Assembly (NCBI GenBank): GCA_037619625.1
Contig: JASJMK010000017.1
Coordinates: 7,327 to 71,326 of the forward strand
DNA length: 64,000 nucleotides
Reading direction: 5' to 3'
From: Actinomycetes bacterium
GTDB taxonomy: Bacteria > Actinomycetota > Actinomycetes > S36-B12 > UBA5976
Positions 33,077-45,765 of this stretch are shown one piece after another. Made by a program: the position numbers and the translations under genes. The stretch's first letter is position 1. Each line of letters begins with the position of its first letter. The notes under the pieces are model-generated. The model ran no database searches. It saw nothing but the letters and a program-made list of their open reading frames with translations, and had not been told where the DNA came from.

Positions 33077-33111
33077 TAGGCTGCGTCAGATCTTGCTGCT
33101 GCCTCTAGTCC

Positions 33112-33169
33112 CTGGCCGTTGGAGAGCCTGGCACCGGGGAAGGTGCGCCAGGATCTAGCCAACGGCCAG
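33112..33169 (-). promoter_or_regulatory. GC-rich nested hairpin in the mraZ-rsmH spacer (candidate mraW RNA motif)
   Basis: Outer perfect 11-bp inverted repeat CTGGCCGTTGG (33112-33122) / CCAACGGCCAG (33159-33169). It encloses a second inverted repeat CCTGGCAC (33127-33134) / GTGCGCCAGG (33143-33152). No U-tract on either side. A structured 'mraW motif' in 5' UTRs of actinobacterial mraW genes has been published, but a sequence-level match is not verified. Confidence 0.5.
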
Positions 33170-33221
33170 AGGCCACAGGCAACATCGTTTGAAGTTGGCA
33201 AGCTGAAACTTATTTTTGCTG

Positions 33222-33644
33222 TCATGGCATTACGCCCTCATCCAAAGTCGCAAAACCAGGTTCTTGGACAGCGAGATATTGACTCCAGGCCAACGTGTCC
33301 CACACTTCAATTCGGGTATCTGCGCCAACTACAACTAAGTCACGATTAAGTCCGGCCCATTCGCGCAACGATGCGGGAATCGTTACCCGACCTTGCTTGT
33401 CTGCGATGTCATCAAATGCCGATGAAAAAAACACCCGAGTGTAAGCGCGGACTTTTTCATTATTTTGCGAACGTTGCCGCAAGCTCTCAGCAAATTCTTG
33501 AAATTGCTCATTTGGCCAAATCACAACGCAGCGTTCTTGGCCCTTAGTCATAACTAAGCCCGTGCTTAGCGGGTCTCGGAATTTTGCCGGCAAAATGACC
33601 CGGCCTTTTTCATCAAGTTTCGGCGTGTGCGTACCTAGAAACAC
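33222..33644 (-). CDS. mraZ: Transcriptional regulator MraZ
   Basis: Two SpoVT/AbrB-like repeats with DEKGRVILPAKFR and DKQGRVTIPASLR. GTG at 33644 gives the canonical (M)FLGTHTPKLD N-terminus and has an AGGTGG SD 5 nt upstream. The ORF-track start is 33653. Confidence 0.92.
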   Translation of the reverse strand: MFLGTHTPKLDEKGRVILPAKFRDPLSTGLVMTKGQERCVVIWPNEQFQEFAESLRQRSQNNEKVRAYTRVFFSSAFDDIADKQGRVTIPASLREWAGLNRDLVVVGADTRIEVWDTLAWSQYLAVQEPGFATLDEGVMP

Positions 33645-41370: not shown

Positions 41371-42480
41371 CTAAAGTTTGTGAATCTTGGCAGCCTGGCT
41401 GATGCGCTGGCTTTGGGCAGTATTTAACGCCTGATCTGGCAATCGGTCATAGCCTTCTCCGAATGGGTCTGGCACATCAGTTTTAATACCAGACATAGTT
41501 TCTAGAACTGCCAAACCGCAATATGGAACATAAATCGGTGAGTAGCCACCTTCGTGCGTCATCATCAATTTACCCTCACAAACTTCATCAGCCACATTAA
41601 GTAATAACTCAGTTAGTTGTCGGTAACCAGCGGAGGTCACCAACATGCGGCCAAGCGGGTCAGCTGCGCTGGCGTCGAAACCAGATGCCACCACAATCAC
41701 ATCAGGTAAGAAATTACGAATTGCAGGTAAGACGACTTTTTCTAAAGCTTCAACATATGCGCCATTACCGGAACCGGCAGGTAGCGGGATATTAATTACG
41801 GAACCAGTTGCTGCTACCCCACCAATGTCATCAATGAGGCCACTGTCAGCTGGATATAGATTGTCTTGGTGAATTGAGATACATAAAACATTTGGGTCCG
41901 AATAAAAAATTTCTTGCGTACCATTACCGTGATGAACGTCCCAGTCAACAACAACTACGCGCTGTACTCCCAATGTTTCTCTGACGTTTTGAATGGCAAT
42001 GGCTGCATTTGCGAAAATACAATAACCCATTCCAGTTTCTGGCCGAGCATGATGTCCAGGTGGACGCACTAATGCATATGCATTATTTACTGTGCCATTA
42101 ACTACTGCACGCAGCGCTTCAATTGCCCCACCAGCAGCAAGTGCTGCGATGTCATAGCCACCATTGCCAAATGGTGATTCGCCGTCTCCGGCATCGCCGC
42201 CCTTAGGTAGCAAGCTTTCAGCTTTGATTCGAGCAAGGTACTCTTTAGTGTGCACGCGCAAAATATCAGCTTCAGTTGCTGTAATTGCAGGAATCTTAAC
42301 TAGTTGCTGGCCAAGGCCAGAAACTTCAATTAGCGAAGCAAAGCGAGTTTTAGTCTCACTGCTTTCGTAGTGTTCATACGGCTGCACTTTGGTGCTTGCA
42401 AATGCATGACCAGCCGCAGTTCCAGTATCGTGCCAGCCATAAAGTTCATTCCAAACAAAACCAGTTTTCATGACGCTCAC
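41371..42480 (-). CDS. Histone-deacetylase-family amidohydrolase (acetylpolyamine amidohydrolase-like)
   Basis: 369-aa ORF with the HDAC/arginase-fold motifs RPPGHHA, VVVDWDVHHGNGTQ, GFDASAADPLG and EGGY. Confidence 0.8.
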   Translation of the reverse strand: MSVMKTGFVWNELYGWHDTGTAAGHAFASTKVQPYEHYESSETKTRFASLIEVSGLGQQLVKIPAITATEADILRVHTKEYLARIKAESLLPKGGDAGDGESPFGNGGYDIAALAAGGAIEALRAVVNGTVNNAYALVRPPGHHARPETGMGYCIFANAAIAIQNVRETLGVQRVVVVDWDVHHGNGTQEIFYSDPNVLCISIHQDNLYPADSGLIDDIGGVAATGSVINIPLPAGSGNGAYVEALEKVVLPAIRNFLPDVIVVASGFDASAADPLGRMLVTSAGYRQLTELLLNVADEVCEGKLMMTHEGGYSPIYVPYCGLAVLETMSGIKTDVPDPFGEGYDRLPDQALNTAQSQRISQAAKIHKL

Positions 42481-42531: not shown

Positions 42532-43953
42532 TTAAGAATCAAATCCCATGCCTAGCCGATCAAGGCTACGTAGCCAGATGTTTCGCTTACCTTGATTGCG
42601 ATCCGCCTTATCGAGAGACCAGCGAGTGAAGTTAATTCCTGCTGATTTAAAAGGCTCAGGTGGGAACGGGATCGGCAAAGTGTTAACCATCTTGAGGGTT
42701 CGTCGATCGGTATCACGATCCAACAACTTGTCGATCGATACTTGGGCGCCAAAGCGGGAGGCCCCAACGCCAAGTCCCGTATAGCCGGCAACGTAAACAA
42801 CTTTGTCATTCATTGCGGTTCCCCAGAATGCGCTGAAGCGAGTGCAAGTATCGATCGCACCACTCCAGGCATATTCAAAACGTAAACCTTCTAATTGCGG
42901 AAAAGTTGAGAAAAAGTGATCAGCTAATTTTGGCCAAGACTTTGTTGAATGTTCATGCTGGACTCCGAAGCCACTGCGGAAATGATACGTCGCGTCGTAT
43001 CCGCCCCAGAGAATCCGGCCATCAGCAGTTGGTCGGTAGTAATGGAATTGATTACCGGTATCGCTGACACCTTCATTTCCAGCCCAACCAATATCTCGAC
43101 GTTGCTGTTCACTTAGTGGCTCGGTCACTAAAACTGAATCGTAAACCGGAACCATCAAATACTTAAGACGGCGTAATAACGGTGGAAATGCATTAGTTGC
43201 AAGTAGCACCTTGGGGGCAGTTACGCTGCCGAACTCAGTTTTTGCGGTGACTCGATCGCCGCGTTCATCTAGCGCGGTTACTTTGCTGTGTTCGTAGATT
43301 CTCACGCCAAGTTCAAGGGCAGTATCACGAAGTCCCCAGGCCAAACGCGCTGGATCACAAATTGCCACATTGTCCGGATTAAATAATGCGCCAAGGTAGG
43401 TAGGTGAATTTAGACGACGTCGAGTTTCGGCTTGATCCAGCCAAATAAGTTCTTCGCCATATGGTTTTGCAACGTCAATGAATTCTTGCAGCTCAGTGAC
43501 TTGATATTCCTCGGTAGCAACATCCATTTCACCAACGCGCATCCAGTCGCAATCAATTTTTCGATCGCTTACGAACTGTTCCATTTCATTTAAATTTTGC
43601 TGACCGAGTTGAGTCAGTTTGGCAATGTCATTTGGCCAGCGATCTAAACCGTTTGCAAAACCGTGAGTAAGTGAAGCCGCCACAAAGCCACCATTTTGAC
43701 CAGATGCCCCGCGCGCTACTGCGTTTCCCTCAACTAACACCACATCCAAATTTGGATTGTGTTGCTTAGCTTCAATTGCTGCCCAGAGCCCGGTGAAGCC
43801 ACCACCGACAATTAACAAGTCTGCCGTTAGGTTTCCAACTATGCGCGACGCATCATTAAGTGGTTCGGCCTCGTCATCAAGCCAATATGAGCCCTCCCAA
43901 ACATCGGCTAGGGATGGTAAAACATGTGCTGAAGGTAGGTGTGAAAAAACCAT
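42532..43953 (-). CDS. FAD-dependent oxidoreductase (DAO family, PuuB/gamma-glutamylputrescine-oxidase-like)
   Basis: 473-aa ORF with the dinucleotide-binding LLIVGGGFTGLWAA motif and ARGASGQNGG. Paralogue of 48342-49724. Confidence 0.75.
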   Translation of the reverse strand: MVFSHLPSAHVLPSLADVWEGSYWLDDEAEPLNDASRIVGNLTADLLIVGGGFTGLWAAIEAKQHNPNLDVVLVEGNAVARGASGQNGGFVAASLTHGFANGLDRWPNDIAKLTQLGQQNLNEMEQFVSDRKIDCDWMRVGEMDVATEEYQVTELQEFIDVAKPYGEELIWLDQAETRRRLNSPTYLGALFNPDNVAICDPARLAWGLRDTALELGVRIYEHSKVTALDERGDRVTAKTEFGSVTAPKVLLATNAFPPLLRRLKYLMVPVYDSVLVTEPLSEQQRRDIGWAGNEGVSDTGNQFHYYRPTADGRILWGGYDATYHFRSGFGVQHEHSTKSWPKLADHFFSTFPQLEGLRFEYAWSGAIDTCTRFSAFWGTAMNDKVVYVAGYTGLGVGASRFGAQVSIDKLLDRDTDRRTLKMVNTLPIPFPPEPFKSAGINFTRWSLDKADRNQGKRNIWLRSLDRLGMGFDS

Positions 43954-44212
43954 TGCAAAAGTCCAAACGATTGGGTGAGAAGGATTCTCACTGGTGATCA
44001 GATGTGTCTGGCAAATTTGCCAGCATTAGTGTCTGTCGGAGTTCCGCTGATTCGCGAATCCGGATCCCACCAGTCCCTTTCTCTAAGATCACTAGGCCTT
44101 GATTTCCTAGTGCCAATCGGCCGTCTCTACAGACGATCCCCTTGCTCTTACATTTAAGCACAGATTTGAAATAAAACGGCTAAATAGGTGGCAATTGGAT
44201 AGCGCCAGCAAG

Positions 44213-44250
44213 CAAAATGGGCACCTCCATCAAGAGGCGCCCATTTTTTT
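44213..44250 (-). terminator. Intrinsic terminator after the aldehyde dehydrogenase gene
   Basis: The minus-strand RNA reads AAAAAAAUGGGCGCCUC-uugaug-GAGGUGCCCAUUUUGCUU, an 11-bp stem with one G-U pair followed by a U-run. On the plus strand the same stem has an A-C mismatch but a longer T-run. Confidence 0.75.
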
Positions 44251-44260
44251 AGGAAGTCAA

Positions 44261-45601
44261 TTAACCGTTAATACGGATTAGCTTCTTGTTCAGGAATTCT
44301 TCGATTCCTAGTGGACCAAGTTCGCGGCCGAATCCAGATCGCTTAGTGCCACCGAATGGAAGTTCCGGAGCGTCCAAGCCAACACCATTTACGTAAACCA
44401 TTCCAGTGTCTAGTGCATCTGCAACCCGAAGTGCTTGTTTGTTGTCGGTAGTAAATAGGTATGAACCCAAACCAAATTGTGAATCGTTGGCAATGCGAAT
44501 TGCATCGTCTTCATCCTTTGCGCGATGAATCTGGGCAACTGGACCGAAGAGTTCTTCGCGGAAAATTTCGTTTTCTGGAGTTACCTCTGTGAGAACGCCG
44601 GCTGGGAAGAATGCACCATTTCGGGAACCTGCACTTGCCAACTTTGCACCTTGCTTTACTGCGCGATTAACCTGCTCTTCAAGGATTTCGGCAGCTCGCA
44701 CTGAGCTAAGTGGGCTTGATATTTCTGCTGACATCATGGCGGCAGTGAACTTTTCAACGAATTCTTCATAAAGACCATCAACGACAACCATGCGCTTTGC
44801 AGCGTTGCATGCCTGACCAGTGTTGTCGATGCGAGCAATAACTGCGGATTCAATAACTGCGTCCATGTCCTTTGTGCTGAGCAAGATGAAAGCATCCGAG
44901 CCACCAAGTTCTAGAACACACTTCTTGAGGTGACGTCCAGCGATTTCTGCAACTGCTGCGCCCGCACGCTCTGAACCAGTTAGCGAAACACCACGAATTG
45001 CGGGATGTGGAATCATGTCTGCAATTTGCTCGTTAGATGCAAATAGATTTTCATAAACACCTGCTGGGACACCTGCATCAGCGAAAATCTTCACAATGGC
45101 TAATGCTGATTCTGGACACTGCGGAGCGTGCTTCAAAATAACAGTATTGCCCGCTACCAGGTTTGGACCAGCAAAGCGTGCAACCTGGTAAGCCGGGAAG
45201 TTCCACGGCATGATTCCCAGAATCGCACCTACAGAAGACTTGCGGATTACGGCGGAACCCTCACCATCTGACAATTCGATTGGCACATCTGTCAGCAGAG
45301 CTGCAGCGTTATCTGCGTAGTACTGATAGATGAAACCAGAAAACTCAACTTCGCCGGCAGCATCGGCTAATGGTTTGCCCATTTCGCGATTAATAATCGC
45401 CGCAAGTTCATCTTGGCGATCAATATGTAGCTGTCCGATGCGATGAACAATTGCCGCGCGCTGCGCTACTGGAACTTTGCTCCATGTCTTATGCGCGTTA
45501 TCAGCAGCAGTAATTGCAGCAAGGCACTGCGCGTCAGTTGCCGTTGCGAATTCTTGTTCAACTACGCCGGTTGCAGGGTTGAGAACTTTATATTGACTCA
45601 T
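44261..45601 (-). CDS. NAD(P)-dependent aldehyde dehydrogenase (succinate/glutarate-semialdehyde dehydrogenase-like)
   Basis: ALDH motifs VLELGGSDAFIL, FDNTGQACNAAKR (catalytic Cys) and EELFGPV. Start at MSQYKVLNPATG (45601) with an AAGGAAAA SD. The ORF-track extension to 45703 is rejected. Confidence 0.85.
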   Translation of the reverse strand: MSQYKVLNPATGVVEQEFATATDAQCLAAITAADNAHKTWSKVPVAQRAAIVHRIGQLHIDRQDELAAIINREMGKPLADAAGEVEFSGFIYQYYADNAAALLTDVPIELSDGEGSAVIRKSSVGAILGIMPWNFPAYQVARFAGPNLVAGNTVILKHAPQCPESALAIVKIFADAGVPAGVYENLFASNEQIADMIPHPAIRGVSLTGSERAGAAVAEIAGRHLKKCVLELGGSDAFILLSTKDMDAVIESAVIARIDNTGQACNAAKRMVVVDGLYEEFVEKFTAAMMSAEISSPLSSVRAAEILEEQVNRAVKQGAKLASAGSRNGAFFPAGVLTEVTPENEIFREELFGPVAQIHRAKDEDDAIRIANDSQFGLGSYLFTTDNKQALRVADALDTGMVYVNGVGLDAPELPFGGTKRSGFGRELGPLGIEEFLNKKLIRING

Positions 45602-45685
45602 TGGATTTTCCTTTTTAAAAAAAGTTGGGTTTAGCTGATTGCCTCCACAATACCTATGAACTAGCCCTGCTGTCAGGGGGTTTTT

Positions 45686-45765
45686 TGCGATATCTTGACT
45701 CAAATCTCAAAAAACCTGCGAAATTCGTATCTATTTTGGTCAAATACTGCGATTTCGCTTGTTAT
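45686..45765. promoter_or_regulatory. Three TGCGA(W)3 motifs spaced exactly 31 bp apart (candidate Lrp/AsnC operator array)
   Basis: TGCGATAT starts at 45686, TGCGAAAT at 45717 and TGCGATTT at 45748. They lie in the 192-bp divergent region between the aldehyde dehydrogenase gene and the Lrp/AsnC gene. Confidence 0.45.

Follow-up and report, generated by a model that had tools for sequence, protein, structure and literature searches.

What occupies the long non-coding gap in front of an actinobacterial FAD oxidoreductase gene, and does it act as RNA or as DNA? In the window, that is, the whole 64-kb stretch of DNA that was analysed (48% G+C), this gene is separated from the aldehyde dehydrogenase (ALDH) gene by 307 nt, the fifth longest of 55 gaps against a median of 27 nt as taken from a crude ORF map, which bears out the original prediction that the gap is unusually long. 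That prediction described a palindrome-dense, potentially highly structured leader of about 260 nt, and all of its palindromes and inverted repeats are present where it placed them.

Gene context of the gap

The features that frame the gap are as follows.

44261-45703, minus strand: ALDH gene, directly upstream of the gap
44214-44247, minus strand: intrinsic terminator of the ALDH gene, outside the leader (arms 44214-44227 and 44234-44247)
42532-43953, minus strand: gene for a DAO-family FAD oxidoreductase of 473 aa (Pfam PF01266, E 3.7e-61), with its ATG at 43953
41371-42480, minus strand: gene for an HDAH-like amidohydrolase (HDAC-fold), 3' of the FAD oxidoreductase gene

The start codon of the oxidoreductase is fixed at 43953 because its homologues, of 472-473 aa, span the entire query (100% coverage). 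A close solved relative of this protein was not found. Based on its family and context, we regard the enzyme as PuuB-like, and a PuuB-type role would fit that predicted for SCO5671 of Streptomyces (PMC5403932). The two genes had been described as an FAD-oxidoreductase/acetylpolyamine-amidohydrolase operon. The oxidoreductase half of this description holds, whereas the amidohydrolase label is uncertain, since the protein is nearest to the HDAH-type 1zz0 (E 1e-111) and matches the acetylpolyamine amidohydrolase (APAH) 3men far more weakly (E 1e-38). For HDAH-type amidohydrolases, the natural substrate is uncertain.

The arms of the ALDH terminator are 14 nt long and 93% complementary, with A and T runs on the flanks, and the stem is retained in relatives via compensatory changes. 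The genes for an Lrp/AsnC regulator and a class-III aminotransferase are divergent from the strand of the ALDH, oxidoreductase and amidohydrolase genes. The longest-ORF calls for ALDH and Lrp overlap (TTG at 45703 and TTG at 45695, respectively). Judging by the genes called in relatives, of 446 and 152 aa, translation probably begins near 45601 and 45794, which would leave a divergent promoter region of about 190 nt, the expected place for an Lrp operator.

Boundaries and conservation of the leader

Based on comparison with relatives, the gap downstream of the terminator divides into three parts.

44158-44213, minus strand: variable spacer between terminator and hexamer, of varying length and 51-58% identical to relatives
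44152-44157, minus strand: -10-like hexamer TTAAAT, at a position conserved across diverged loci
43954-44145, minus strand: conserved structured 5' leader RNA of the oxidoreductase mRNA, long form, about 192 nt

A metagenome scan and contig look-ups yielded syntenic loci with oxidoreductase identities of 70-96% (individual loci are given L numbers below). All of them except L092-L097 (73-75% identity) have a spacer of 220-360 nt 5' of the oxidoreductase gene, in which the ATG-proximal 190 nt or so are almost invariant and the terminator-proximal 55 nt or so are variable. Leaders at 19 further metagenomic loci share 82-97% identity with that of the window, compared with 46-58% at codon position 3; the identity of the variable spacer is at about the latter level. 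The -10-like hexamer lies 6-7 nt 5' of GCAAGGGG in all diverged clades. It is imperfect in the window (TTAAAT) and reads TACAAT, TAGAAT, TAGTAT, TAGCAT, TACCAT or TAGACT in relatives. Because the position of this hexamer is conserved, we infer that transcription starts near 44145. The leader predicted at about 260 nt is shortened by these boundaries, the terminator-proximal remainder being the variable spacer plus the hexamer.

The leader of L089 is 97% identical to that of the window with an oxidoreductase identity of 86%, and the corresponding values for L102 are 84% and 94%. The phylogenies of leader and gene thus disagree (L089/L090 and L102), which suggests recombination within the leader/oxidoreductase locus.

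Covarying helices of the leader RNA

The elements of the leader are listed below in the 5' to 3' direction of the RNA.

44139-44145, minus strand: 5' strand of helix P0, GCAAGGG, which pairs with CUUUUGC at 43955-43961 (positions -2 to -8)
44121-44136, minus strand: hairpin H1, UCGUCU GUAG AGACGG, predicted as CGTCT/AGACG (44122-44135); 6 of 6 pairs compensatory
44113-44120, minus strand: junction CCGAUUGG, invariant in 19 of 20 long-form sequences
44090-44112, minus strand: hairpin H2, CACUAGG...CCUAGUG; 7 of 7 pairs compensatory, loop and length variable
44065-44080, minus strand: invariant core AAAGGGACUGGUGGGA, family consensus GAAGGGAYUGGUGGGA
44068-44074 (inside the core) with 43990-43996, minus strand: helix P3, ACUGGUG with CACCAGU, enclosing H3, P4 and H4
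44037-44062, minus strand: hairpin H3, CGGAUUCGC GAAUCA GCGGAACUCCG, containing the 12-bp palindrome (44049-44060)
44032-44035 with 43999-44002, minus strand: helix P4, CAGA with UCUG, enclosing H4; 3 of 4 pairs compensatory
44019-44023 with 44008-44012, minus strand: helix H4, CUGGC with GCCAG, in the 16-bp palindrome (44008-44023); 5 of 5 pairs compensatory
43977-43989, minus strand: hairpin H5, GAGA AUCCU UCUC, predicted as GTGAGAA/TTCTCAC (43975-43991); 2 of 4 pairs compensatory, loop variable
43963-43974, minus strand: hairpin H6, CCAA UCGU UUGG, whose 3' strand bears the weak Shine-Dalgarno (SD)-like GGA (43962-43964)
43955-43974, minus strand: ribosome-binding region, comprising H6, the SD-like GGA and the P0 3' strand CUUUUGC

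A covariance model, R1, was built from sequences of the close clade and a structure drawn by hand, and it matched 20 distinct long-form leaders. In the alignment fitted to this model, which covers about seven independent long-form lineages and underlies the main covariation table, 94.3% of cells are paired (about 7% of cells being G-U) and 31 of 52 pairs are compensatory. None of 500 shuffles reaches the observed values, and slid partners give 30-41% pairing with 4-8 compensatory pairs. Because this first alignment was fitted to the model, the comparison was repeated with MAFFT and RNAalifold on an unfitted alignment. H1, H2, P3, H3, P4, H5 and H6 were recovered de novo, together with a helix joining the 5' end to the pre-AUG sequence, and 18 of 48 pairs were compensatory. 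Moreover, consensus folding gives -44.4 kcal/mol for the sense strand versus -28.4 kcal/mol for the antisense strand. The minimum free energy (MFE) fold of the putative transcript from 44145 includes P0, H1, H2, P3, H3, P4 and H4. In contrast, the folding energy of the single sequence is unexceptional (z = -1.3 for the minus strand and -1.2 for the plus strand), and the case for structure therefore rests on comparison. The description of the region as highly structured is borne out by the comparative data but not by single-sequence energy.

Conservation and covariation thus back the proposed minus-strand leader RNA with a multi-helix fold, and five of the six elements first noted correspond to real helices (H1, H2, P3, H4 and H5). 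H1, H2, H4 and H5 covary. P3 is conserved and nearly invariant, with 98.5% of cells paired, and varies only by a single G-C to G-U replacement and a single two-sided change. The 16-bp palindrome CTGGCAAATTTGCCAG survives only in part: its 5-bp stem CUGGC/GCCAG is kept as H4, whereas the remaining loop varies. The 12-bp palindrome GATTCGCGAATC is not the conserved pairing; relatives read GATTCGCAAAAA, and H3 uses another register, in which GGAUUCGC pairs with GCGAAU(A)CC. The GTGTCTG repeats are present at 44004-44010 and 44029-44035 but are not conserved. Two perfect palindromes of at least 12 bp occur within 53 nt, which is denser than in simulations: under a first-order Markov model, about 18 are expected per 64 kb, or about 0.075 per 260 nt.

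The 5'-terminal and start-proximal elements vary little within the window's own clade, as seen for both P0 and H6. For P0, U-to-C changes opposite G preserve pairs in L087, L154 and L159. H6 is retained as CCGAU/AUUGG in L154 and, with a hairpin inserted into its loop, in L158. The SD before the ATG, the SD-like GGA, is indeed weak. The junction segment CGAUUGG could also pair with CCAAUCG (43968-43974), and this pairing appears in the window MFE; it is invariant in the clade, shows no covariation and is lost in L154 and L161. The invariant junction nucleotides are CCGAUUGG and GAAAGGGACUGGUGGGA.

By eye, the 5' segment GCAAGGGG-H1-CCGAUUGG (44113-44145) resembles the module found in the short forms described below, GAAGGG..GGGA-hairpin-UUCCGAU (44037-44080). 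The long form may be an internal duplication consisting of two tandem modules.

The leader motif accompanies PuuB-like oxidoreductase genes

Of the 157 loci compared, 22 have the exact core 13-mer, in each case 5' of the oxidoreductase gene and on the sense strand; the 13-mer occurs nowhere else in the loci compared. Further loci match the core with 1-2 mismatches, and the window has one copy. In a second, short architecture (L001, L007, L008, L018, L098-L101, L126, L136 and L168-L171), the core and a hairpin are found 60-90 nt upstream of oxidoreductase homologues at 43-58% identity. This hairpin occupies the same place as H3 and covaries, with several different stem sequences across the short forms. 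The short form measures about 75 nt, and beyond the core and one hairpin it has nothing in common with the long architecture.

The motif is always directly 5' of the PuuB-like oxidoreductase gene, and the flanking genes change among loci. Upstream lie two kinds of ALDH or a PotC-like permease; downstream of the oxidoreductase lie HDAH-like, Zn-ADH, convergent permease, dnaE2 or agmatinase genes. The short forms mostly follow PotB/PotC-like permease genes and can be followed by an agmatinase gene and a carboxynorspermidine-synthase-like gene.

A protein-alignment search of genome contigs gave, among the matches listed, relatives of at most 57% identity and yielded the short forms L001, L007, L008 and L018. 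Also among the matches listed, the motif is absent from most other homologues, including those of Streptomyces, Kitasatospora, Nonomuraea and Chloroflexota and L092-L097. An nhmmer search with a close-clade profile retrieved close relatives only. A further 28 matches to the core 16-mer in viral contigs are due to chance, as they lie in unrelated sequence with neither an oxidoreductase homologue nor an adjacent hairpin.

As judged from these comparisons, the leader represents a family of RNAs that accompany the genes of PuuB-like oxidoreductases in aquatic Actinobacteria. Its core is invariant over oxidoreductase identities of 43-96%. No helix is conserved as strongly, which suggests that the core is recognised by some factor.

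Comparison with known RNA classes

The original prediction found no resemblance to the riboswitch classes it considered (TPP, glycine, c-di-AMP and cobalamin), and Rfam 15 (4227 covariance models) agrees. At gathering scores, the whole window contains only mraW RNA. At E values up to 10, the interval 43700-44500 gives only two sub-threshold sRNA matches, both of which cover the ALDH terminator with flanking sequence (44174-44260), and the motif in eight other loci has no match at E up to 5. Nor is the leader motif described in the literature that was searched. From the comparative evidence, the leader is a real, conserved, structured cis RNA of a family without an Rfam entry.

Like riboswitches, the leader combines a covarying 5' UTR domain with a steady link to the genes of one pathway despite changing neighbours. 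It resembles known actinobacterial riboswitches and orphans (SAM-IV, ZTP/pfl, ydaO and the raiA motif) in its position in a 5' UTR, its multi-stem junction with invariant junction nucleotides, its covarying stems of variable length, a predicted helix in the ribosome-binding site (RBS) region without a terminator, and a gene link kept across neighbourhoods. It differs from them in that no Rfam 15 model matches it and in that its long and short architectures have just the core and one hairpin in common. These features make it a good candidate for a riboswitch linked to amine or polyamine catabolism.

The spermidine riboswitch is a SAM-I variant with a four-way junction, found in Firmicutes upstream of biosynthetic genes (PMC10853860), and acts as a transcription-terminating OFF switch (Salvail et al. 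2023, PMC10853860). Both RNAs are linked to polyamine-related genes. In contrast, the leader has actinobacterial hosts and an apparently catabolic gene, and its ACUGGUG pairs with a strand 70 nt away. Neither RF00162 nor any other SAM-clan model matches it, and its helix topology is not of the four-way K-turn/P2-J3/4 type. A string of the leader, GGGACUGG, is presumably shared with the SAM-I consensus, a lead without a model match.

Two further candidate cis-regulatory RNAs lie by polyamine-related genes, which is their likeness to the leader. The potC motif, reportedly from a 2010 survey, is said to be a candidate cis-regulatory RNA near Pot transporter genes, and we take both it and the ldcC motif to be Rfam families. 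The ldcC motif is a candidate RNA with a polyamine decarboxylase neighbour (Weinberg et al. 2017, PMC5737381). Hosts and downstream genes of both differ from those of the leader, ldcC is a different RNA, and the region has no Rfam match.

Translational T-boxes occur in Actinobacteria, and GGUGGGAACCGCG in L153 resembles what we take to be the T-box sequence GGUGGNACCGCG. However, RF00230 does not match, UGGU lies within helix P3 and not in an antiterminator bulge, and most members read GGUGGGAUCCGG; no specifier stem is apparent by eye. Similarly, the cobalamin models RF00174 and RF01689 have no match. None of the likenesses considered (SAM-I, T-box, cobalamin, glycine and an extended anti-SD complement) is accompanied by a model match. 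ANTAR targets consist of two tandem hairpins whose hexaloops carry A1 and G4 (PMC8164766). The leader does not fit this pattern, as its H3 loops read GAAUCA, GAAUCU, AAAAAU and UUUAGU and its H4 loops have 6-7 nt without a conserved A1/G4.

The E. coli mRNAs of the polyamine modulon, reportedly described by Igarashi and Kashiwagi, are said to have weak or awkwardly placed SD sequences in imperfect helices, with polyamines stimulating initiation. The leader likewise has a weak SD inside imperfect helices, and this could be a way in which it works. To our knowledge, modulon mRNAs are not conserved RNA families with invariant cores; the leader, in contrast, is such a family, and the likeness proposed is one of mechanism.

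Pairing of the start region and a proposed mechanism

P0 and H6 both involve the region from the SD to the AUG, and in other clades the core pairs there, so the partner differs by clade. P0 is not kept in the clade of L161 and L165; there, the start region is taken up by the core-proximal CAUAGUGAAAG, whose partner is CUUUCACUAUG, AUG included (z = -3.8 and -4.1). In L007 and L008, GUGGG pairs with CCCGC and CCCAC beside the start codon. A duplex test between core and pre-AUG sequence is significant in L161, L165, L168, L171, L018 and L126, about half of the lineages. It is not significant in the window's own clade, and a universal core/pre-AUG helix is rejected. The recurring pattern is therefore that purine-rich leader elements appear to cover the initiation region, with the element differing by clade.

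Based on these observations, we propose that the leader is the 5' UTR of the oxidoreductase mRNA and would have a promoter of its own, shortly 3' of the ALDH terminator. In the predicted fold, P0 would join the 5' end to the pre-AUG stretch, followed by H1 and H2, by a three-way domain with P3 as its closing helix and H3 and P4/H4 inside, and by H5 and H6, the last carrying the weak SD. We infer that the leader controls translation initiation in cis. Purine-rich segments (the 5' GCAAGGG in the window's clade and the core elsewhere) would pair with the pyrimidine-rich stretch from SD to start, and an effector at the core or junction would set the ribosome-binding region closed or open. The effector would most likely be a small molecule of amine or polyamine metabolism, making the leader a riboswitch; a metabolite is favoured because no RNA-binding protein gene co-occurs and because the architecture is aptamer-like.

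The best explanation of the data would be a conserved, riboswitch-like cis leader RNA that controls translation of the oxidoreductase and responds to an effector that is likely an amine or polyamine metabolite, and we give it roughly even chances of being right. The more specific reading is tentative and, on present evidence, somewhat doubtful: a new riboswitch class, possibly of two related modules, that would sense a polyamine or related amine and open the RBS of the PuuB-like oxidase gene. Its ligand could be putrescine, spermidine, agmatine, or an acetyl or gamma-glutamyl derivative.

The carriers of the motif are freshwater actinobacteria. In lakes, freshwater Actinobacteria of the Nanopelagicales type rank among the most abundant bacteria; their genomes are small and encode few regulators, and they probably take up polyamines. 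A conserved leader on an amine-catabolic oxidase gene suggests control of the pathway at the RNA level. If the effector is a metabolite of the polyamine pathway, the leader would form a second natural class beside the single validated spermidine riboswitch (PMC10853860) and, if this is true, the first RNA sensor for polyamine catabolism. A metabolite-binding leader would also offer a compact new aptamer in its short form. Even if the effector is a protein, the 16-nt core would be a new regulatory signal with which metagenomes can be screened.

Alternative explanations

The same leader RNA could instead be the target of an RNA-binding protein, or of some other macromolecule, that acts in trans, with the 16-nt core as the operator; binding there would mask or unmask the ribosome-binding region. 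The invariance of the core at oxidoreductase identities of 43-96%, while its predicted partners shift register between lineages, agrees with such a target. So does the tie to one gene family only, as an autoregulatory or protein-mediated leader would show, and the second purine-rich segment with hairpin and CCGAU upstream looks, by eye, like a module repeat that would suit a dimeric binder. However, no candidate RNA-binding protein gene is consistently nearby, and the contexts differ. CsrA is not known from Actinobacteria, and an ANTAR protein is ruled out by loops that lack the hexaloop A1/G4 pattern (PMC8164766). We consider a protein operator unlikely.

Slightly less probable still is a constitutive structural leader without a dedicated effector, that is, an mRNA stabiliser, a fixed throttle or enhancer, a thermosensor or a cation sensor. 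The fold closes over the start region and the SD is weak, and polyamines and Mg2+ alter RNA folding generally, all of which would agree with this. Yet an invariant unpaired junction and a multi-helix junction, kept at 82-97% identity, exceed what a stabiliser or an SD mask needs.

The perfect palindromes had also been predicted to be DNA operators for the neighbouring Lrp/AsnC regulator, and they could in principle serve this or another transcription factor. Two of them lie within 53 nt, and the Lrp/AsnC gene is 1.5 kb away. This reading fails because neither palindrome is conserved as a palindrome in relatives; only the halves that form RNA stems are kept, with compensatory and G-U changes, and consensus folding favours the sense strand. 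Moreover, the motif occurs without an Lrp gene within the L153 sequence, where PotABC-like genes lie upstream, and in L159, where 285 nt of contig precede the oxidoreductase gene. The palindromes also lie downstream of the putative transcription start, and the divergent Lrp-ALDH region is the likelier Lrp site. DNA operators are therefore very improbable.

Equally improbable is a reading of the conserved block as a gene of its own, for a small RNA or a leader peptide, rather than as the oxidoreductase UTR: a -10-like hexamer lies upstream and ORFs of 57 and 60 aa overlap the block, but 1-nt indels at three places in relatives break both ORFs, which are therefore not coding, conservation and pairing reach position -2 of the ATG, and a consensus promoter/terminator scan, which had no hits and missed even the obvious ALDH terminator, gave no terminator-like site in the leader up to the ATG. 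The preferred reading remains a cis leader RNA of the oxidoreductase mRNA.

Other features of the window

The mraW RNA (RF01746) lies at 33086-33191 on the minus strand with 72.9 bits, which exceeds its gathering score, and marks the actinobacterial dcw cluster. Downstream of the operon, the segment 36910-41319 (minus strand) contains a DUF6504 gene, a HEPN_SAV_6107 gene and a 1166-aa ORF, whose positional counterpart in relatives encodes PHP/DNA_pol3_alpha domains; L157 has an IMS-family gene. The predicted gene content of this segment is that of a mutasome neighbourhood of the imuA'/imuB/dnaE2 type. Seven perfect palindromes of at least 16 bp occur in the window (at 33581, 36605, 36937, 37813, 42070, 44008 and 54747), where 1.2 are expected from a first-order Markov model. 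Several of them lie inside coding sequence and have restriction-site-like cores (GAGATCTC, GCTCGAGC, GAATTCGAATTC, ATGCATATGCAT and CCATGGCCATGG).
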